Shown here in pieces: positions 27,993 through 54,563 of a stretch of DNA of 57,308 nucleotides. A program made the position numbers and the translations under genes. Below the pieces are notes generated by a model that saw only the letters and a program-made list of their open reading frames with translations, was not told the origin of the DNA and ran no database searches. The stretch covers positions 1 through 57,308 of IMG/VR virus record IMGVR_UViG_3300044972_000184; one strand, written 5' to 3'. The stretch's first letter is position 1. Each line of letters opens with the position of its first letter. This DNA comes from a virus. Taxonomy: Duplodnaviria; Caudoviricetes.

Positions 27993-28454
27993 TTATGCTG
28001 GCACTTCAGGCCAGAGGATGTTGAAAGGGTCAGGCTGAGCGGTGATATCGCGCAATGCTTGGCGGTACGTCGCCCATTGAGTGGCGTTTACCGGAGCGTC
28101 AGCAACCTGCGTCCAGTCGGAGGCGACCAGCTTCGCATTACGATCAGCACGAACAACGGCCCATTGTGCCTCGACCTTTGCCGCAGCTTCGCCGGCATCT
28201 AGGGCGCTCACGATATAGTTCTGTGTCCACACACCGTCGATCAGCAAGGCCGGTCCATGCTCCCGCTGCTGGATGGCTGGGTCAAAGTAGGGCGGCGTAA
28301 CCAGCTTCAGCTTATGAACACCGAACTGCACGATCTGCTCAGGCGTCAGCTTCGCCACCCGACAGAAGTTGTCATCGTCCCAGCGCGTCGGCTCGACATC
28401 ATGGATATGCCGAACGAATGTGTCGCCATTAGCTTGGACGTAGAACAGGCTCAT
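27993..28454 (-). CDS. Tail fibre assembly chaperone
   Basis: VRADRN..L..SDWTQ..DAP..W..YRQALRDI..Q..P..I.WP. Confidence 0.88.
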   Translation of the reverse strand: MSLFYVQANGDTFVRHIHDVEPTRWDDDNFCRVAKLTPEQIVQFGVHKLKLVTPPYFDPAIQQREHGPALLIDGVWTQNYIVSALDAGEAAAKVEAQWAVVRADRNAKLVASDWTQVADAPVNATQWATYRQALRDITAQPDPFNILWPEVPA

Positions 28455-28756
28455 GCCTCGGCTTCCTTCGCTTTTCGCTTGGCGGTGACGCGCTCTACGG
28501 CTGCTGCGTACTCCGCGTCGTTGTCGATCTGCGACCGCAGTGCCTCAATAACAAGCAAGACATTGAGCATCTGCTTGCGGGTTACATCCAGACGCTCAGA
28601 TACGTTCGCCGCGAACTCGTTATCTACGGCGTTTGCCAACAGATACTCAAAGTTTATGCGGTCGAAATCGTAGTGGAAATACTCCGCTTCGCGGGCATAC
28701 ATTGCGTCTGCGATTACGTCGTATTTGTACTCGGTTGGAAGCTGTGCATACTTCAT
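28451..28756 (-). CDS. Hypothetical protein (fibre module)
   Basis: 101 aa helical ORF between fibre and chaperone. Confidence 0.6.
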   Translation of the reverse strand: MKYAQLPTEYKYDVIADAMYAREAEYFHYDFDRINFEYLLANAVDNEFAANVSERLDVTRKQMLNVLLVIEALRSQIDNDAEYAAAVERVTAKRKAKEAEA

Positions 28757-44960: not shown

Positions 44961-45437
44961 CTACTCCCCGTGATCGTCTGTGTACCCCAACTCCCGGTAC
45001 AGCAAATCGCGCACCTTCATAGCCAGTTCGAGTGTGCTATATCTGCCCCCAAACACGGTACCGACGCGAACCCTCCATCCGCCGCTGCTAAAGTCGATGC
45101 CGTTTTGCCCAGACGTATTATTCTTAGCGCGGCTCTTGTTCTTCGCGTTGACCGCTGGGGTTGCGACCCTGAGGTTCTCGATCCTATTGTCGAGCGTATC
45201 GCGGTTGATGTGGTCCAGCATCCCGTCCGGCCACTCTCCATGGACGACAGCCCACACCACCCTATGAGCGGCGTACTTGCGGCCTTCGATCTTCACTTCC
45301 CCGTACGGCTGTCTGTCGTCCTTCTTCTTCCGCAACTGGACATACGCGGGCTTACCCGTCGAGCGCCTGATAAGCACACCAGTGCCGTGGTCGTACGTAA
45401 AGTACGCTTGGAAGTTCACATGTTTTGCGTTCGTCAT
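44961..45437 (-). CDS. HNH endonuclease (HNH_3 type + AP2-like tail)
   Basis: AHRVVW..HGEWP..LDHINR...DNRIENLR; start set at MTNAKH. Confidence 0.88.
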   Translation of the reverse strand: MTNAKHVNFQAYFTYDHGTGVLIRRSTGKPAYVQLRKKKDDRQPYGEVKIEGRKYAAHRVVWAVVHGEWPDGMLDHINRDTLDNRIENLRVATPAVNAKNKSRAKNNTSGQNGIDFSSGGWRVRVGTVFGGRYSTLELAMKVRDLLYRELGYTDDHGE

Positions 45438-45444
45438 AGGGGGG

Positions 45445-45473
45445 TATGTACAGGACTGGCGCGGTTGGGTCAA
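45445..45473 (-). promoter_or_regulatory. Promoter for leaderless HNH mRNA
   Basis: TTGACC-N17-TACATA, ATG 7 nt downstream. Confidence 0.6.
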
Positions 45474-45699
45474 TACCCCCCTTGGTTTTTTGGGGTCTTG
45501 TTCTGAGAGGGATACTATCATACCGGGGGCGTCGGTTTTCTCCAGTCCAACCCCCCCCCATGCCTGACTGTTTAGCCTGCGTTTGCAACGGCTTAGGGCA
45601 AGCGCCGTCACCTAGGGAAACGGGCAAAACTAGACTTCCCCGTCAGGTTATGGTCTAAGGAAAGGGTCAGCGGCGCACGACGCACCGCAGACAGGGAGA

Positions 45700-45764: not shown

Positions 45765-46058
45765 ATGGCTATGAAGCGCAACGAACAGAAGGCCGAGTTC
45801 ACCAAGATGCCCTTGGAGAACATGTCAGCACCGGTCCGCCAGAAGGCGGAAGCGTGGCTGAAGGCTGACGCAGCGGCGAAGGACGCCAAGAAGGCGTTCC
45901 AAGACACTGCATCGGCGGCGGCCCGCAAGGCCAAGGTGATCGGCGCAAGCCAGTATCTTGCCTTCGGTATGGGTTTTGGCGGTATCCCCGCCTACACCAT
46001 CAAGGACGTGGAAGCCCCCAAGGCTGCCACTGCCACGGCAGCCGGCCCGAAGTTCTAA
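45765..46058 (+). CDS. First early gene, Ala/Lys-rich hypothetical protein
   Basis: GGAG SD, phage-like codon usage. Confidence 0.75.
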   Translation: MAMKRNEQKAEFTKMPLENMSAPVRQKAEAWLKADAAAKDAKKAFQDTASAAARKAKVIGASQYLAFGMGFGGIPAYTIKDVEAPKAATATAAGPKF

Positions 46059-46071
46059 GTCAAAGACGGAC

Positions 46072-46095
46072 GGGAGGCAGCGCAAGCTGCCTCCC
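46072..46095 (+). other. Perfect 10-bp hairpin with GCAA tetraloop (no U-tail)
   Basis: GGGAGGCAGC-GCAA-GCTGCCTCCC. Confidence 0.6.
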
Positions 46096-46122
46096 AAGTC
46101 CCCTAACCTACGGACGCACACC

Positions 46123-46281
46123 ATGCCTGATTATGACAAGGGCTACACCGTCGTTTGGTACGAAGGGTGGAGCGAGTACCGCAAGTGGTTCGCCACTGAA
46201 CATCAAGCGCAAGAGTACGTCGACGCCACGGGCATGGACCCGGACGAGTTCGACATCGTAGAGGGAGTTGTACATGCTTAA
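46123..46281 (+). CDS. 52-aa acidic hypothetical protein
   Basis: MPDYDKGYTVVW..FATE..A..Y. Confidence 0.6.
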   Translation: MPDYDKGYTVVWYEGWSEYRKWFATEHQAQEYVDATGMDPDEFDIVEGVVHA

Positions 46282-46351
46282 GCTACTCGAACTGGCAGCG
46301 ATGCCACTGACGATCCTGTTCTTCCTCGGTGTGTGGATCGGCACCAACTGA
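46274..46351 (+). CDS. 25-aa single-TM peptide
   Basis: GAGGGAG SD; MLKLLELAAMPLTILFFLGVWIGTN; followed by a terminator. Confidence 0.45.
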   Translation: MLKLLELAAMPLTILFFLGVWIGTN

Positions 46352-46356
46352 CCCTG

Positions 46357-46387
46357 ACCCCACTGGCTTCGGCTGGTGGGGTTTTTT
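46357..46387 (+). terminator. Intrinsic terminator
   Basis: ACCCCACTGGC-TTCG-GCTGGTGGGGT followed by a T run. Confidence 0.85.
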
Positions 46388-46388
46388 C

Positions 46389-47214
46389 GTGTCAAGTTAT
46401 CAGGTGTCAAGTTTCGAGGTCGCTATCGCTCCCCATACGTCGGGGGTCTGTATCTCGCGCGTGTTGCAGCGCCGTTATCGACTGCCTCGATCATGCGATT
46501 ATACAGTCGGGGGGCCGTAACTTTACAATAATCTAGAAAATCTATAGCCCATATCGTGTAATTTCAATGACTTAGCACTTAACTATACAACCCTGTATAC
46601 CGATAACTTGACACGACGGATGTGTGTAAAGTTAGGCGTAACTTGACACGTGATACGCGGAAAAAGTGTAAAGTTAGCGTGTAAAGTTAGCGTTTTACCA
46701 AGGAAAAACAGTGGGTTAAGCCACAGGCATCCGGCAGAAATCGATTCTCTATATAATATAGATAATCTGTTTAATACATAGAACATTTGTAGAACATACT
46801 ATGTTTTGCTGTTTTTAGGAAAATGAAACTTTACATGTAAAGTTACGCAACCCCTAAAAAACTTGTGGTGTTAAGTTTCGCGAGTAGATTATTTAGATCA
46901 ACCTAGCAATATCAATGACTTAGCCGTGTCAAGTTAGCTCATTTCCGGATTACACCCCCAGAAACTAGATTATATACTAGATTGTAAAGTTACATAGCCC
47001 TATTACGAAAAAACCCAGCGAAATCAACGGCTTGCGCCGAAACTTGACACGCCGGGCCGGCTGGCCTAGGTTTGGCTGGCCCGAAGCGGCGACCCGGTGT
47101 AAAGTTACACGGGATTACACACCACCACATACCGGAGGCTATCATGCCAAAGAAAGTATACACCTCGTTCAGTGATCTACGTGACAACGTGTTCAGTTCC
47201 TCGAAACTTGACAC
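46389..47214. repeat. Iteron array GTGT(A/C)AAGTT(A/T), ~15 copies in both orientations, AT-rich core and IHF sites; putative replication origin
   Basis: Copies at 46389, 46404, 46518, 46604, 46624, 46639, 46666, 46679, 46826/46836, 46868, 46926, 46983, 47040, 47097, 47204. Confidence 0.8.
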
Positions 47215-47452
47215 CAAGACCCTCAAGGTCTGCACCATCCGCCGTAGCTACCTGTCGTCACAGGATGCGGTCTATGACTGGCGTGTTGGTCACGATCTGC
47301 TGGTAATTGACACCGACAGCCCCTTCAATGGCTGCACCCTCAGCGTTCTCGATACCCCTGTTCTCCGTCAGAATGGCTACACTGACCTGTCCATCAGCTA
47401 CAATCGTGGCCTTGAGCCGGTTGCTCTGCCGCTGGTTCGGGAGGTGTTCTGA
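47144..47452 (+). CDS. Early hypothetical protein
   Basis: GGAGG SD before ATG 47144; R.Y.S...V..DW..G.D pattern. Confidence 0.7.
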   Translation: MPKKVYTSFSDLRDNVFSSSKLDTKTLKVCTIRRSYLSSQDAVYDWRVGHDLLVIDTDSPFNGCTLSVLDTPVLRQNGYTDLSISYNRGLEPVALPLVREVF

Positions 47453-47691
47453 TGCGTATCGGTAACTGGCTACTGGTCGACAAGGCCACCAACGAACCCG
47501 TCAACAAGGGTGACACCATCACTGACTTCCGTGGAGAGATGCACGTCCTCCATGATGCTACCCCACCTCGCAAGCCCGGTGCTGCTGGTTATGCCACTGT
47601 AATCTACACCGGCAACGACGACCGGCAGCATTACCACCAGTGCTACGTCAGCGTTTACAACCTCAAGTGGATCGAAGGAGCCGCTCAATGA
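47452..47691 (+). CDS. Early hypothetical protein (SH3-like size)
   Basis: GGAGG SD; V..GD.ITDFRGE..Y.SV.NLKW. Confidence 0.7.
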   Translation: MRIGNWLLVDKATNEPVNKGDTITDFRGEMHVLHDATPPRKPGAAGYATVIYTGNDDRQHYHQCYVSVYNLKWIEGAAQ

Positions 47692-48008
47692 CCACCGACC
47701 TCGCTAACCGCACTCTCGAACTGTCGTTCGGTGAACATCTCCCCATGCTCAATCTCACCTGTGGTGGGAAGAAGTTGTGGGAGGCTGTGGGATATCTCTC
47801 TGTATGGGCTGCATCCAGTGATCGCTATCGCCACTGCCGCATCATCGGTGGTGTCTACGGTGATGTGCCGGAACTGACAGCGACCTACTGGCGGGAAGAA
47901 CACGCTGCCCATAACGTCAACGACAACCCCATCACTTTCCAGATGGGTGCTGTCTGGCACCATGACGGTGGCCCTGATGGCGAGGGGTACTTCTCGTTCC
48001 ATAGCTAG
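47688..48008 (+). CDS. Early hypothetical protein
   Basis: AAGGAG SD, ATGA coupling; C-terminal G.V....FSFHS. Confidence 0.7.
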   Translation: MTTDLANRTLELSFGEHLPMLNLTCGGKKLWEAVGYLSVWAASSDRYRHCRIIGGVYGDVPELTATYWREEHAAHNVNDNPITFQMGAVWHHDGGPDGEGYFSFHS

Positions 48009-48069
48009 TCGAAACCGGCCTAGTGCCGGTCTGTGGGTAATGACCATCCCACACTGATGAGACAGGTCA
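48008..48069 (+). ncRNA. Type II hammerhead ribozyme
   Basis: GTC-GAAA-CCGGC(CTAGT)GCCGG-TC^-TGTGGG(TAATGACCAT)CCCACA-CTGATGA-GAC; loop TGACC pairs with 3' GGTCA. Confidence 0.92.
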
Positions 48070-48072
48070 CAC

Positions 48073-48507
48073 ATGGAGAAGTCTATGACGGATACCACCA
48101 AGTCCACCCGTGTCGGTGGACACAAAGTCCGACAGTTCGTTCAGAACCGGCAACCGTTCCACAACAGCGGCAGCAACTATAACCATCCCAAGGGCAGCAC
48201 CCTGTGGGGAGAGCAGCTTACCCCTGACCTCTACATGGTGTTCAGCTATTGCCTCAGTTGGCCCCTCTATGCCTGCTGGAAGGGGGTGTGGTTCAAGAAC
48301 GAGGACAAGTACGGTCCTACCACCAGCAAGCACAGCAGTCAGGCTCACCCCCTCGGTAAGTGTGTCCCGCTGTCACTGGCACAGATGTACCAGATATATT
48401 CCTACAGCCAGCCATCGACGGCTGCCATGGTGGAGGCTGCCAAGCTGAAACTTCTCTCTGACCCCAACGACATCGCCATCGTTACCGAGGAAAGGATCAC
48501 AGCATGA
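48073..48507 (+). CDS. Early hypothetical protein
   Basis: Y.V.SY...WPL...W..N...Y..TTSKH phage pattern; true start may be ATG 48085 after GGAG. Confidence 0.7.
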   Translation: MEKSMTDTTKSTRVGGHKVRQFVQNRQPFHNSGSNYNHPKGSTLWGEQLTPDLYMVFSYCLSWPLYACWKGVWFKNEDKYGPTTSKHSSQAHPLGKCVPLSLAQMYQIYSYSQPSTAAMVEAAKLKLLSDPNDIAIVTEERITA

Positions 48508-48701
48508 GCCTACATCCCCTGTTTCTGATCCTCTACGCCATGCTGGGGGTTCTCACTTGGTGGGCTGTATCATCCCACCTCACCACCTTCGTGGTGGCCT
48601 ACGCACTGCTGGCCGTCGGCTTGGCAGTGATCCACTACGCCTATGTCAACGACCTCAAGAGGAGCGAGACCCATGACGACGACATCGACTGGGATATCTG
48701 A
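48504..48701 (+). CDS. Two-TM membrane protein
   Basis: Two hydrophobic helices and an acidic tail. Confidence 0.6.
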   Translation: MSLHPLFLILYAMLGVLTWWAVSSHLTTFVVAYALLAVGLAVIHYAYVNDLKRSETHDDDIDWDI

Positions 48702-49326
48702 GAAGCGCAAAGCGGCGCTGATCGAGCAGCACCGTCACATTAACGTCGACTATGACTGGTGGGACTGCACCTACGACGACTTCATCGAGACAGCCAAGGC
48801 CAAGGGGTTCTACACCACAACCAAGGACATGTCTTTCAGCGGGTTCTGGTCACAGGGTGACGGTGCCTCCTTCACTGGCGGTGTCGATGTGCCGGCTTTC
48901 ATTGCCTACGTTAAGGCGGAGAACGCCAAGCTGGTAGCTGAGGGCAAGACTGCCCCCCTCGACCCCTACCCATGGATCGACAAGCTGTACCAGCACGGTA
49001 GCGACATCGAGATCAAGGTTGTTCGCAACAGCCGTCACTATGCCCACGAGAACACCTGTGGGATCGACATCGGGTTTGCCGGGTCGTTCGCTTACATGCT
49101 CGACGACGGTGACGATGAGACCCGTAGTGCAGTGCTCGGAGCATGGGACGAAGCACTCAGCGCCGACATCGACCAGCTTGAGAAGGACATCGAGTCGACA
49201 CGCTATGCCTTGTGCAGAGAACTCTACCGGTCACTGGAGTCAGAATATGAACATCTCACCAGCGATGACGCTGTGTGGGACACCATCGAAGCCAACGATT
49301 TACACCAAGAGGAGGACGACGAATGA
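48673..49326 (+). CDS. Acidic conserved protein (family often labelled 'antitoxin' on mobile elements)
   Basis: FSGFWSQGDGASF; LYR.LE.EYE.LTSD.AV...I.AN. Confidence 0.65.
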   Translation: MTTTSTGISEKRKAALIEQHRHINVDYDWWDCTYDDFIETAKAKGFYTTTKDMSFSGFWSQGDGASFTGGVDVPAFIAYVKAENAKLVAEGKTAPLDPYPWIDKLYQHGSDIEIKVVRNSRHYAHENTCGIDIGFAGSFAYMLDDGDDETRSAVLGAWDEALSADIDQLEKDIESTRYALCRELYRSLESEYEHLTSDDAVWDTIEANDLHQEEDDE

Positions 49327-49922
49327 GCCGACTGACCAACAGCATCCGTGAGGAAATGGCCCGCAAACTGGTGGCCTATCGCTACACCAACGACGCCAAG
49401 GAACTGGTGCAACTGAACCGCAAGCTGGCTGACCGAGCCTATGCCTACCTCTACTCCAAGGAAGTGCTGGCAGCGATGGCGGTGGTGAACAAACACTTCC
49501 CCGACGCCTTCACCGTGACCAGTGACTACAGGGGTATGCCGGTCAACGCCGGCGGTTACAGGGTCAACATCGGCGGCAATCTCCATAGCCGTTGGGTGAG
49601 GATCGAGCAGGCCAAGCACGACGGGTACAAGATCGCCGGTCGCTACACTGAACACGGCATCACCGACGAGGCGCTGTCCGAGGAGATCAAGAACTTCGCC
49701 ACGCGGTACAGGCAGTTCGATGATCTCTGTGCAGCGGCATACAGTGAAGCCATGGCAGTGCTGAGCACCTGCTCCACCGGCAAGAAGCTGGCAGCAGCGT
49801 GGCCTGAGGCTATGCCTGTCATCGGTGATCTCATCCCTGAGGCTGACCGGACGCTGCCCACTGTGCAGGTTGCCGATGTCAACGCCAAGTTCGGCCTGCC
49901 CCCTGAGTCCAAGGCTGAGTGA
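49323..49922 (+). CDS. Nmad5-like protein
   Basis: RLT..IRE N-terminus; T.KKL...WPEA C-terminal motif. Confidence 0.7.
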   Translation: MSRLTNSIREEMARKLVAYRYTNDAKELVQLNRKLADRAYAYLYSKEVLAAMAVVNKHFPDAFTVTSDYRGMPVNAGGYRVNIGGNLHSRWVRIEQAKHDGYKIAGRYTEHGITDEALSEEIKNFATRYRQFDDLCAAAYSEAMAVLSTCSTGKKLAAAWPEAMPVIGDLIPEADRTLPTVQVADVNAKFGLPPESKAE

Positions 49923-49959: not shown

Positions 49960-50148
49960 ATGACAAACGTATCTGCACAACTCCGCCTGTTCACCCTCCG
50001 CAAGTGGCGCAAGGGGCCGGTCATCACCGACCAGTTCGGAGACGTGATCTACTACGACAACAAGATGGAGGCGAAGCTGGCTCGTGACCGGATCAGGGGC
50101 ACCACCGTGGTGTCCTACGGCCCCGACCACCACCTGTACGATGTCTGA
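49960..50148 (+). CDS. 62-aa hypothetical protein
   Basis: AAGGA SD; Y.DNK..AK..RD..VS.GPDH. Confidence 0.65.
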   Translation: MTNVSAQLRLFTLRKWRKGPVITDQFGDVIYYDNKMEAKLARDRIRGTTVVSYGPDHHLYDV

Positions 50149-50473
50149 TCCGGCCATCCTCTGGAGCCTACGGCTTGCACCAGCCCGAACCTTTTCCGGC
50201 ATCGGCATCGGCATCGGCAACGGCCACGGCAACGGTCACGGCTATGGCGGCTACGGCTACGGCGGCGGCGGCGGCTACGGCTACGGCAACGGCATCGGCA
50301 TCGGCTACGGCTACGGCATCGGCATCGGCTACGGCTACGGTCACGGCGACGGCGACGGCGACGGCTACGGCGACGGCTACGGCAACGGCATCGGCATCGG
50401 CTACGGCTACGGCATCGGCATCGGCTACGGCTACGGCGACGGCGGCGGCATTAGCAGGACCTACGAAGCATAG
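50141..50473 (+). CDS. Gly-X repeat protein A (110 aa)
   Basis: Leader ILWSLRLAPART, (GGC-NNC)n core, tail GDGGGISRTYEA. Confidence 0.7.
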   Translation: MSDPAILWSLRLAPARTFSGIGIGIGNGHGNGHGYGGYGYGGGGGYGYGNGIGIGYGYGIGIGYGYGHGDGDGDGYGDGYGNGIGIGYGYGIGIGYGYGDGGGISRTYEA

Positions 50474-50482
50474 GAGATACAC

Positions 50483-50737
50483 ATGGACGATCACTTCAAG
50501 ACAGCCTGCATCATCGTCGGGACAGCAGGTTTCGTCTGGTACGCACCGACAGTGACCGACAACGGGGAGTATATGATGCTCACCAAGGCACGGATCATCC
50601 GTGTCTGGGGTACTGACCAAGGCTTGGCACAACTTATCCCCGGCCCCCGCAAGGAGACCGTACTCGATACACCCGGAGATGTTGTACTGGCCAAGTCTGC
50701 CTTCCTGTTCGCCATCCCATGCAAGACATGGCCGTGA
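50483..50737 (+). CDS. Small beta protein (DUF6948-like)
   Basis: AGGAG SD; IIV...GFVW..L..AR.IR.WGT..GLAQL..GP. Confidence 0.7.
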   Translation: MDDHFKTACIIVGTAGFVWYAPTVTDNGEYMMLTKARIIRVWGTDQGLAQLIPGPRKETVLDTPGDVVLAKSAFLFAIPCKTWP

Positions 50738-50943
50738 TCCTCTGGAGCCTACGGCTTGCACCAGCCCGAACCTTACCCGGCAACGGCAACGGCTACGGCA
50801 TCGGCTACGGCAACGGCTACGGCGACGGCGGCGGCTACGGCGGCGGCTACGGCTACGGCGGCGGCTACGGCGGCGGCTACGGCTACGGCGGCGGCTACGG
50901 CAACGGCGACGGCGGCGGTCGAAGCACAACTTACAAAGCATAA
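50728..50943 (+). CDS. Gly-X repeat protein B (71 aa)
   Basis: Same leader ILWSLRLAPART, GY/GN/GG core, tail GDGGGRSTTYKA. Confidence 0.7.
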   Translation: MAVILWSLRLAPARTLPGNGNGYGIGYGNGYGDGGGYGGGYGYGGGYGGGYGYGGGYGNGDGGGRSTTYKA

Positions 50944-50996: not shown

Positions 50997-51992
50997 ATGC
51001 GTCCTGCACTTCTCAAGACCACTCTCATGTCGATGTTCCGCCGCCAGCGTACTGTCTGCATCGAAGGCCCACCCGGTGGCGGCAAGACCACCATCGTCAA
51101 GGACGTGGCCAAGGAACTCGATGTTCCCTACATCCACCTCCACATGCCGCTTCGCAAGGTCGAGGACTTCGGTATGCCCAAGTTCAACGACGACGGCACC
51201 CACTTCTTCACCGTGCCAGACTGGTTCCCATCCGTTGGCTCTGCCCATGACACTGGCAAGGGCGGCATACTGTTGCTGGATGATCGCAACCAAGCCGATG
51301 CAGACATCCAGAAAGTTATCGCCAACATCTGCCAAGAGCGTGAGCTTAACGGCTTCAAGCTGGCCGATGGCTGGCAGGTGGTGTCCACTGGTAACAGGCA
51401 GCAGGATCGTGCCGGTGCCAACCGTGTGCTGGGGCATCTCGGCAACCGCGAGACTGTGTTGGAGTTCGAGACTGACCTCAACGACAGCACCGACTGGATG
51501 ATGCGTAACGGTGTCAAGCCGGAGGTTGTGGCGTTCCTGCGCTTCCGGTCTGGTCTGCTGCATGACTACGATCCGCAGCGCCGCAGCAATCCGACACCCC
51601 GTTCATGGGTCGAGGGTGTCAGCGATAACCTCGGTGTTGTGCCCGCTGAGGCAGAGTACGAGGTGTTCAAGGGCGATGTCGGTGAGGGTGCAGCGGCAGA
51701 GTTCACCGGGTTCATGCGTATCTGGCGCAAGCTGCCCAACCCTGACGCTGTGCTACTCAATCCGACCACCTCTGAGGTGCCGACCGATCCGGCTACCCTG
51801 TACGCCCTGTCTGGATCACTGGCACAGCGTCTCACCGTGTCCAACTTCGACCGTGCTGCACAGTATGCTGAGCGTATGCCGGCAGAGTTCTCTGTGCTTA
51901 TGGTGAGCCTCGCTCTCAAGCGTGACCCCATGTTGGCGTCGACACAGGCGTTCATCCAGTGGTCGCTCAAGCATCAGGACGTGTTGTTCTGA
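50997..51992 (+). CDS. MoxR-type AAA+ ATPase
   Basis: GPPGGGKT, Walker B LLLDD, TGNR..DRAG, NR, PTPRSW. Confidence 0.9.
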   Translation: MRPALLKTTLMSMFRRQRTVCIEGPPGGGKTTIVKDVAKELDVPYIHLHMPLRKVEDFGMPKFNDDGTHFFTVPDWFPSVGSAHDTGKGGILLLDDRNQADADIQKVIANICQERELNGFKLADGWQVVSTGNRQQDRAGANRVLGHLGNRETVLEFETDLNDSTDWMMRNGVKPEVVAFLRFRSGLLHDYDPQRRSNPTPRSWVEGVSDNLGVVPAEAEYEVFKGDVGEGAAAEFTGFMRIWRKLPNPDAVLLNPTTSEVPTDPATLYALSGSLAQRLTVSNFDRAAQYAERMPAEFSVLMVSLALKRDPMLASTQAFIQWSLKHQDVLF

Positions 51993-53456: not shown

Positions 53457-54563
53457 ATGACCGACATCAAAGCACTGGAGCGGCGCTTGGCCAAGGCCAA
53501 GACATCACTGATCCTTGAGCATCCGTTCATCGGGACCATCGCTCTCAACATGCAGTACATCGTCACCCCCGACGTGCCGACCGCTGCCACCAACGGCAAG
53601 TACATCAAGTTCAACCCGGACTTCATCGACCCGCTGTGTGATGAGCAGCTTAAGTTCCTCGTGGCACACGAGTGCTTCCACCCCATGTTCGAGCACAACT
53701 ACCGCCGTGGTACCCGTATCCCCGGCAAGTGGAACCGTGCCGCTGACTACGTCATCAACCACCACCTCGTGGCCGAGAAGATCGGCAAGTTCATCGACGG
53801 CGGCTGTCTCAACCCCAACCTGTACAACGCAGGCAACGGCACCAGCGACGGTATCTACAACCTGCTGCCCGATGAGCCTGACGATAACAGTGACGCCTAC
53901 GATGACTGCGAGGACGGCGGTGCCACCGAGACGGAGCGGCAGCAAGCACAGGCAGAGATGCGTGTACAAGTTGCTCAGGCAGCACAGGCTGCCAAGATGA
54001 TGGGCAAACTGTCGGCCAACATGGAGCGGCTGGTCGGTGAGATACTCCAGCCCAAGGTCAACTGGGCTGACGTGCTACGCCAGTTCATGCAGAAGATCAG
54101 CGCCGGTGGTCGGTCATACGAGCGGCCTAACCGCCGCTTCCTGCACCAAGGTGTCTATCTGCCCGGTCCGTCCGGTGTCACGATGGGTCCGCTGGTGTTC
54201 GCTGTCGACTGCTCTGGTTCCATCACTGCCGAGCAGATCAGCCAAGCTGCCGGTGAGATCACCGCTGTGTTCGAGGACTTCGCTCCTGCTGCACTGCACG
54301 TGGTCTACTTCGACAGCGAGGTGTGCCACTACGATGTGTTCACCCGTGATGAGGAGCCGGTCATCAAGCCGCACGGCGGCGGTGGTACTGCCTTCAGCCC
54401 TGTGTTCCGGCACATCGAGGCCAACGACATCGAGCCGTGCGCTTGCATCTTCCTGACCGATTTGTACTGTTCCGACTTCGGTCCGGAGCCGGACTACCCG
54501 GTGCTGTGGGTCAGCGATGGCGCTGACAAGGCACCCTTCGGTGAGGTGGTAGCATGGAAGTAG
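53457..54563 (+). CDS. Metallopeptidase-like + vWA protein (DUF2201-like)
   Basis: TAATNG, AHECFH (HExxH), WN.A.D..IN; MIDAS DCSGS, GGGGT.F, FLTD. Confidence 0.9.
   Translation: MTDIKALERRLAKAKTSLILEHPFIGTIALNMQYIVTPDVPTAATNGKYIKFNPDFIDPLCDEQLKFLVAHECFHPMFEHNYRRGTRIPGKWNRAADYVINHHLVAEKIGKFIDGGCLNPNLYNAGNGTSDGIYNLLPDEPDDNSDAYDDCEDGGATETERQQAQAEMRVQVAQAAQAAKMMGKLSANMERLVGEILQPKVNWADVLRQFMQKISAGGRSYERPNRRFLHQGVYLPGPSGVTMGPLVFAVDCSGSITAEQISQAAGEITAVFEDFAPAALHVVYFDSEVCHYDVFTRDEEPVIKPHGGGGTAFSPVFRHIEANDIEPCACIFLTDLYCSDFGPEPDYPVLWVSDGADKAPFGEVVAWK

Follow-up and report, generated by a model that had tools for sequence, protein, structure and literature searches.

A type II hammerhead ribozyme at a conserved gene junction of an uncultured freshwater phage and its possible role in making RNA ends

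The ribozyme locus and its genomic setting

The stretch of DNA analysed here, hereafter called the window, is the complete virus record IMGVR_UViG_3300044972_000184 (57,308 bp, with direct terminal repeats), which derives from an uncultured phage of the Caudoviricetes. Its plus strand carries an entire type II hammerhead ribozyme at 48007-48071, set between two co-directional open reading frames (ORFs) that are referred to below as the upstream gene (47688-48008) and the downstream gene (48085-48507). The late genes, for terminase, portal or adaptor, major head protein, internal virion protein and tail fibres, occupy a minus-strand block from about 8.8 to 44.9 kb. The plus-strand block that holds the ribozyme is made up of small ORFs and genes for an Nmad5-domain protein, an AAA ATPase and a DUF2201 protein, and it continues across the record ends into genes for DNA polymerase, exonuclease, helicase and primase. 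Assignment of the ribozyme to an early operon is a reasonable reading of this gene layout.

The preceding plus-strand unit is closed by a strong terminator-like hairpin of 12 pairs with a T run (46356-46383, plus strand), and the operon of the ribozyme begins past this hairpin, with its first ORF at 47072. The G+C content falls to 0.518 in 46001-48000, a low-GC gap at the start of the plus-strand block. Within the block the ribozyme follows the third ORF, about 1 kb from the start, and is in the sense strand. The only terminator-like call between 46383 and the ribozyme is a weak 5-pair stem within the upstream ORF (47971-47988), and no promoter-like site was found beside the ribozyme in the scan. 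An earlier note on this DNA, made from the sequence alone, had placed the ribozyme between two early genes of a polycistron, and the layout, with the ribozyme in the sense strand between co-directional cistrons, agrees with that description.

Anatomy of the ribozyme

The Rfam family Hammerhead_II (RF02276) matches 48007-48071 over all of its model positions (1-66 of 66) with a score of 37.4 bits against a gathering score of 37 (E-value 4.9e-4 in the window). The site thus passes the family's own cut-off, by a small margin; syntenic relatives reach 57.5 bits, and a lineage model built here from the relatives (R1) gives the window ribozyme 65.6 bits. The search had been suggested in the earlier note as a check on its claim of an intact type II hammerhead with a loop I/3′-tail pseudoknot, and each of the elements named in that claim is present where it had been placed.

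From 5′ to 3′, the 5′ strand of stem II (GUC, 48008-48010) is followed by the core segment GAAA (48011-48014; G12, A13, A14 and A15.1), the stem III hairpin (48015-48029), the GUC cleavage triplet (48029-48031), the stem I hairpin (48032-48053), the core segment CUGAUGA (48054-48060) and the 3′ strand of stem II (GAC, 48061-48063), which is the order of a type II hammerhead. Stem II has 3 bp, and its first base is also the last G of the upstream stop codon (TAG, 48006-48008). Stem III is formed by CCGGC (48015-48019) and GCCGG (48025-48029) around the loop CUAGU (48020-48024) and is extended by the A48014-U48030 pair. Stem I is formed by UGUGGG (48032-48037) and CCCACA (48048-48053) and is capped by a 10-nt loop I, in which UGACC (48041-48045) makes five Watson-Crick pairs with GGUCA of the 3′ tail (48065-48069). 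The predicted scissile bond is C48031/U48032. The core conforms to CUGANGA, GAAA and an NUH triplet, with the closing pairs G48061-C48010 (G10.1-C11.1) and A48014-U48030 (A15.1-U16.1), and its columns, including CUGAUGA, GAAA and the GTC of the cleavage triplet, are invariant across the 14 aligned relatives.

No second hammerhead was found on either strand of the 57,308 bases, either with Rfam at an E-value of 1 or below or with the lineage model, and RF02276 had no match in any of 14 control genomes. Plain minimum free energy (MFE) folding recovers stems I and III, and the energy of the fold is no better than that of shuffled sequence (z-score -0.51; 65 of 200 shuffles fold as well), so that thermodynamics alone would not have flagged the site.

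Conservation and covariation among relatives

Relatives of the locus were fetched with the upstream protein (106 aa from ATG 47688). All five close viral contigs, in which this protein is 39-44% identical, carry a Hammerhead_II match of 37.5-54.5 bits; the ribozyme directly follows the homologue of the upstream gene in four of them and follows one extra small ORF in the fifth (L004). A profile search returned 17 viral loci, namely the same five contigs and 12 more distant ones (29-36% identity). Among 33 metagenome loci, which were not de-duplicated against the viral contigs, 13 have a ribozyme directly 3′ of the upstream-gene homologue, ten of them found with Rfam and three with the lineage model. 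The latter three (L162, 1765-1831; L165, 637-707; L180, 1697-1763) score 55.9-70.5 bits with R1 and are missed by Rfam even at an E-value of 1 or below, which implies that Rfam-based counts of phage hammerheads are underestimates. The sole hammerhead of a complete 55-kb relative lies at the same junction, and the syntenic ribozyme is kept across proteins that are only 39-50% identical.

The 22 aligned matches reduce to 19 distinct rows. Over these rows 98.0% of stem cells form standard pairs, compared with 78.2% when partners are shuffled and 25-56% when partners are slid by one to three columns, in an alignment that was fitted to the model. Compensatory changes on both sides are present in 10 of the 14 stem pairs (four of five in stem III and five of six in stem I), and the middle pair of stem II covaries, being U-A in seven rows and C-G in 12. 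The pseudoknot was outside the model, and its two strands covary too, in four versions: UGACC/GGUCA, UGGU/GCCA, GGUCU/AGACC and UGAUC/GAUCA. Only 3 pairs remain in two subgroups, the L176 type and the L180 type. When tails were reassigned to loops, 8 of 720 reassignments paired as well as the real combination; this holds for Watson-Crick pairs only, and once G-U pairs are admitted the test loses its power to discriminate, since 19 of 52 non-cognate loop/tail pairs then reach 5 bp. A shuffled loop I reaches five Watson-Crick pairs with the tail in 83 of 10,000 trials.

A contig of the L003 type (run X2) aligns to the window as DNA solely over 48006-48069, with four other letters and one gap, and all five of these differences fall in loops. 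The flanking proteins are only 39-47% identical, and the ribozyme is therefore the best-conserved DNA in its neighbourhood. Taken with the compensatory changes, this pattern argues that selection acts on the folded RNA, beyond DNA homology, and on such comparative grounds the element is judged to be a real, selectively maintained type II hammerhead, a further member of a well-known class.

The opposite view, that the site is a chance match or an inactive relic that does not cleave itself, seems very improbable indeed. It could draw on the small excess over the Rfam cut-off (0.4 bits), an MFE no better than that of shuffles, a stem II of only 3 bp and the lack of an RNA run among the listed holders of the window DNA. 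Against it, all core positions are canonical, the stems and the pseudoknot covary, synteny has survived the divergence of the flanking proteins, the control genomes are free of matches to the family, and a short stem II is usual in the class according to the text of Perreault et al. 2011 (PMC3088659).

Some relatives carry unusual copies. In L158 (613-701) a variant with the core CUGACGA (C at the variable core position 7), a long insertion in stem III and the pseudoknot UGAUC/GAUCA sits not behind the gene but about 800 nt upstream of it; its Rfam score of 29.5 bits falls short of the cut-off, and the lineage model gives it 40.8 bits. Two near-identical hammerheads in L174 (381-448 and 870-937) bracket the homologue of the downstream gene; stem III of the second copy contains an A-C mismatch. 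In L179 a stretch of the downstream gene (1490-1560), about 180 nt past the intact ribozyme, duplicates the final codons of the upstream gene together with the hammerhead's 5′ half, and is either a recombination scar or an assembly chimera.

Copies such as these bear on the idea that the hammerhead is chiefly a mobile or recombination-prone cassette, a conserved stretch of 65 nt that propagates through duplication and exchange, marks module boundaries and gives its neighbours little or no expression benefit. The paired copies of L174 and the partial copy of L179 speak for this idea, as do the clean presence or absence of the ribozyme among near relatives (L167 and L168 compared with L002 and L164), the varying gene content beside it, the about 92% identity of the window ribozyme to the L003 type despite flanks that fail to align as DNA, and the five changes that the label "has ribozyme" needs on the tree of the upstream protein. 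The well-supported branches of that tree, however, force no more than one change. Compensatory changes moreover keep the three stems and the pseudoknot paired, and the L003-type differences are confined to loops, so the cassette idea appears quite improbable. In the free tree a long branch leads to the window's upstream protein, which is separated from the loci that share its ribozyme type; an approximately unbiased (AU) test does not reject grouping it with them (p 0.313), which also counts against the cassette. Since this grouping is not rejected, horizontal transfer of the ribozyme is not demonstrated, and no claim of transfer is made.

The same junction with and without the ribozyme

The upstream and downstream genes form a conserved pair that recurs both with and without a ribozyme between them, and relatives of the downstream gene are found beside relatives of the upstream gene. 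In ribozyme-free relatives the junction takes several forms. An intrinsic terminator directly follows the upstream gene in L014, L016-L019, L022 and L023, a short stable hairpin covers the stop codon in L182 and L187-L189 (z-score -4.36 for L182), and in L160, L161, L163, L170, L190, L167 and L168 the genes are translationally coupled or the upstream gene leads straight to the next ribosome-binding site. Where the ribozyme is present, it is separated from the upstream stop codon by 0-12 nt, with L004 as the sole exception, and the ribosome-binding site always lies within a few bases of the pseudoknot tail.

The terminator-like hairpins with T runs at the junction have been located at 2733-2750 in L014, at the same place in L016, and at 2724-2741 in L022. 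L014 and L016 also repeat a ribosome-binding stretch of about 22 nt verbatim before two successive genes. The slot of the hammerhead is filled in L015 (2680-2735) and L020 (2950-3005) by a conserved element of about 50 nt before the homologue of the downstream gene. It forms a long hairpin with a z-score of only -1.17, is represented by two copies among 190 loci, and is at the same time a Cys-rich mini-ORF, which is a separate ORF of 23 codons in L015 and an in-frame fusion to the gene in L020.

Because relatives have a terminator, a hairpin or nothing at this junction, the ribozyme is read here as an RNA-end maker, and the comparative junction data are consistent with such a role. A different emphasis would have the ribozyme mainly serve the downstream gene, trimming variable upstream RNA to a constant, structured 5′-OH leader that sets translation or stability; the leader would be protective or decay-marking depending on the RNases of the host, and the upstream product would be a by-product. 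This is compatible with the ribosome-binding site lying a few bases past the pseudoknot tail, with the 3′ product starting in a hairpin without an overhang, with L004, where the extra small ORF parts the upstream gene from a ribozyme that still directly precedes the downstream-gene homologue, and with the second copy in L174, which precedes the next gene too. It accords less well with L003 and L166, which lack the downstream-gene family and yet have the ribozyme at the stop codon of the upstream gene, with the tight spacing to that stop codon everywhere but in L004, and with the terminators and hairpins that follow the upstream gene in ribozyme-free relatives, which are 3′-end devices and not leaders. 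A role chiefly as a downstream leader is accordingly regarded as unlikely.

Placement of viral type II hammerheads

The close fit between the ribozyme and the flanking genes appears to be a wider property of viral type II hammerheads. A core-motif pattern scan of viral contigs (L024-L155), covering at least 132 loci and relying on crude ORF rules, gave 146 pattern matches among those listed, of which 114 pass simple stem criteria. Among these listed matches a same-strand ORF stop lies within 150 nt upstream in 111 of the 114 (median gap 2 nt) and within 15 nt in 91, and an ORF start lies within 150 nt downstream in 107 (median 24 nt) and within 30 nt in 88. For the antisense control the corresponding figures, among the same listed matches, are 13 of 114 for stops within 15 nt and 34 of 114 for starts within 30 nt. 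The pattern partly reflects the tight intergenic gaps of phages. One 67.6-kb contig has up to seven core-motif matches within 4.7 kb, again among the matches listed.

A model for RNA-end formation

It is considered fairly probable that the element is a functional hammerhead in the sense strand of an early, replication-side operon, where it would cut the operon transcript in two and make the RNA ends without outside help. What the analysis shows is the motif with its conservation and covariation, where it is placed, and the shapes that its products are predicted to take; from these we infer transcription, cleavage in vivo and an effect on stability or expression. Once RNA polymerase has passed about 48069, stems I and III would fold as hairpins, the 3-bp stem II would close the junction, and the loop I/3′-tail pseudoknot would dock stem I against stem II. 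The backbone would then cut itself between C48031 and U48032. This cut would separate the first three cistrons (47072-48008) from the remaining operon, and RNA polymerase would not be stopped.

The upstream RNA is predicted to keep its stop codon and to extend 23 nt beyond it, closing with the stem III hairpin, a 1-nt overhang (an unpaired C) and a 2′,3′-cyclic phosphate. The downstream RNA would have a 5′-OH and would begin at U48032, a nucleotide already paired in the stem I hairpin, with the ribosome-binding site a few bases past the ribozyme. When the two predicted products are folded, each new end carries a terminal hairpin, and the 3′ product has no overhang. That both new ends are capped follows from the type II topology, and judging from topology the type II permutation would be alone in capping both. 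As a likely consequence, the two RNA segments would decay and be translated independently of each other, an outcome that other systems reach with an intrinsic terminator or a host RNase III site, and no host enzyme would be needed.

The earlier note had proposed that the downstream message acquires a structured 5′-OH end. The predicted 3′ product does start exactly with the stem I hairpin, and the 5′-OH follows from the chemistry of the class as given in the text of a 2019 review (PMC6765202). That proposal leaves out the 5′ product, which would gain a 3′-terminal hairpin just past the stop codon.

A number of observations weigh against the model of a functional RNA-end maker. The RF02276 score exceeds the gathering score by just 0.4 bits, and the MFE of the fold does not stand out from that of shuffled sequence. 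Four lake-water DNA runs, each from a different study, contain the window DNA without change; DNA contigs cannot show RNA ends, and no RNA run is among the 21 runs listed as holding the window DNA. All 12 of the more distant viral relatives are without a hammerhead at an E-value of 1 or below, and 19 of the 33 metagenome loci have no ribozyme at the junction (L158 has its copy elsewhere, and L186, with just 10 nt of flank, is not judgeable). L167 and L168, close kin of the bearers L002 and L164, go directly from the stop codon to the ribosome-binding site, and the ribozyme is thus dispensable over short evolutionary distances. A single ribozyme in 57 kb also means that this phage does not use the element as a general "one message per gene" device. 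Since the stop codon overlaps stem II, a terminating ribosome must melt the ribozyme, unfolding stem II and half of stem III, and cleavage must therefore precede the first ribosome or await gaps between ribosomes. Finally, the effect of a 5′-OH or a cyclic phosphate on decay depends on the RNases of the host.

The same overlap invites a bolder generalization, which is tentative and on balance doubtful. Phage type II hammerheads may be portable, host-independent makers of 3′ ends without termination, evolutionarily interchangeable with a terminator or a stop-codon hairpin. As the ribozyme abuts the upstream stop codon, cleavage would be gated by translation of the upstream gene, and the ribozyme could act as a sensor, releasing the downstream message only if ribosomes trail RNA polymerase.

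Neighbouring genes

The upstream gene encodes a conserved, uncharacterised phage protein of 106 aa from ATG 47688 (the mechanical ORF opens at GTG 47640), with a C-terminus that ends in F-x-F-H-S. The downstream gene encodes a conserved, uncharacterised phage protein of 140 aa from ATG 48085 with a DUF8033-like predicted fold and the motifs Y-V-V-Y-S-Y-G-x-H-W-P-L and W-F-x-N-x-D-K. Its ORF also opens at ATG 48073, the start from which the earlier note had measured the intergenic space, counting from the upstream stop at 48008. That stop stands, and there is an ATG at 48073, but the gene more likely starts at ATG 48085, because GGAG is found six bases upstream of it and the homologues have their Met at the aligned position. 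The GGAG (48075-48078, plus strand) lies 6 nt past the pseudoknot tail and 6 nt before ATG 48085, and from its spacing and conservation is the likely Shine-Dalgarno sequence.

Neither protein belongs to a Pfam or PHROG family. At an E-value of 0.1 or below, Pfam gives nothing for the downstream protein of the window or for 17 of 18 members of its family, the remaining one having a stray match to SocA_Panacea at 0.07; the Pfam set used may not include DUF8033. A PDB sequence search with the neighbouring proteins returned no match at an E-value of 1 or below save one spurious row. AlphaFold models are of good confidence, with a predicted local distance difference test score (pLDDT) of 87.7 for the downstream and 86.8 for the upstream protein. 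The downstream model matches only uncharacterised phage proteins, several of them BFVD models labelled DUF8033 (a label taken from UniProt), with E-values of 3.4e-5 to 7.9e-4 and template modelling (TM) scores of 0.42-0.55. Foldseek found nothing in the PDB at an E-value of 0.001 or below; its best rows, plant ribosome-inactivating proteins at an E-value of 0.13 and a TM score of 0.29, are regarded as noise. With VIA-align the best Z was 2.9 for the downstream protein, and the matches of the upstream protein to histidine-kinase ATP-binding domains and ribosome-hibernation factors (Z of 5.7 or less) are below the meaningful level of the tool and were set aside. Used as a single query in viral contigs, the downstream protein gave seven pattern hits, none of which was confirmed. 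In the earlier note the downstream message had been called a host-takeover mRNA, a designation that finds no support, as neither protein has a Pfam or PHROG family or an informative structural match.

Other features of the window

An HNH endonuclease gene (44961-45611, minus strand) lies between the packaging genes and the early region. Further into the plus-strand block are the genes for the Nmad5 (nucleotide-modification-associated) protein (49275-49922) and for the AAA ATPase with its DUF2201 metallopeptidase/VWA-like partner (50997-51992 and 53457-54563). Two further plus-strand ORFs (50084-50473 and 50719-50943) contain Gly/Tyr-rich low-complexity repeats, with G-Y-G and G-I-G runs, and share similar N-terminal stretches (…ILWSLRLAPART…). 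Because long ORFs of the opposite strand and of other frames run across both, the coding frame of the two is uncertain.

A candidate twister-P3 ribozyme (RF03154) at 28609-28694 on the minus strand was rejected. Many of its bases agree with the consensus, and it scores 26.1 bits against a cut-off of 39.9 (E-value 0.43), lies inside a minus-strand ORF of about 100 codons (ATG near 28755, stop near 28451) and is absent from all three complete relatives at an E-value of 1 or below.

With regard to the host, no relative of the upstream protein, and hence no prophage match, was found in a set of one genome per prokaryote species. The nearest cultured relative of the capsid is that of a Rhizobium phage (53.8% identity), in which no hammerhead was found. 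Among named phages, neither a nucleotide search with 47400-48800 nor a tblastn search with the upstream protein gave a match.

Comparison with known systems

Natural type II hammerheads with a loop I/3′-tail pseudoknot were described by Perreault et al. 2011 (PMC3088659), whose text gives mutational proof of the importance of the pseudoknot and reports that it is required for fast cleavage and that stem II can be as short as 2 bp. According to the same text, hammerheads are often placed around prophage genes, native polycistronic prophage RNAs are cleaved both in vitro and in E. coli, and processing into operon-length or gene-length mRNAs was proposed; the words "stop codon" and "terminator" are absent from its main text. 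The role of bacterial and phage hammerheads is described as still unresolved in the text of the 2019 review (PMC6765202), where differences in stability or translation between the products are suggested. Among the titles and abstracts of the literature search there is no later functional study of phage hammerheads.

The window ribozyme shares with RF02276 and the type II hammerheads of Perreault et al. 2011 the permuted topology, with capped stems I and III and an open stem II, as well as the core, the short stem II, a 5-bp pseudoknot directly past stem II and the phage intergenic, sense-strand setting. Its pseudoknot (UGACC/GGUCA) and its loop I of 10 nt depart from the Rfam consensus, which accounts for the score of merely 37.4 bits and for the three relatives that Rfam misses at an E-value of 1 or below; nothing differs in kind. 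The triple arrangement at Agrobacterium tumefaciens ardA, as given in the text of Perreault et al. 2011, is likewise intercistronic in a polycistronic phage transcript, and processing to shorter mRNAs was proposed for it. The clustered prophage hammerheads of that study bracket short gene blocks or single genes, whereas the window has a single copy at one conserved junction of a conserved gene pair, and among the relatives only L174 has a flanking pair.

The window's ribozyme can also be set beside devices of other kinds that make or trim RNA ends. The early cistrons of phage T7 are separated by host RNase III, which cuts between them and leaves hairpins at the new ends that can change stability or translation. 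Cuts between the cistrons of an early polycistron and hairpin ends are common to both systems, and T7 is the closest functional analogue that can be named; there is no family relationship, as the T7 cuts are made by a host protein enzyme on a double-stranded stem whereas the hammerhead would be a self-cutting RNA that leaves a 2′,3′-cyclic phosphate and a 5′-OH. Intrinsic terminators similarly give the upstream message a 3′ hairpin near its stop codon, but they stop RNA polymerase, and the ribozyme would let transcription continue downstream. In RiboJ-type insulators and the glmS ribozyme, self-cleavage in the 5′ leader sets a constant 5′-OH hairpin end or exposes the message to 5′-end-dependent decay. 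RiboJ differs from the window ribozyme in being engineered, and glmS, which also figures in the text of PMC6765202, in being metabolite-dependent and of another ribozyme class; no ligand-sensing part is evident in the window ribozyme.

The hammerhead class, its pseudoknot and its intercistronic prophage setting have thus been known since 2011, as the text of PMC3088659 attests. The present case contributes a clean natural experiment, in which a conserved gene pair of uncultured freshwater phages has at its junction a ribozyme, a terminator, a small hairpin or nothing. These four natural junction types offer a direct test of whether phage hammerheads act as 3′-end makers that do not terminate transcription.

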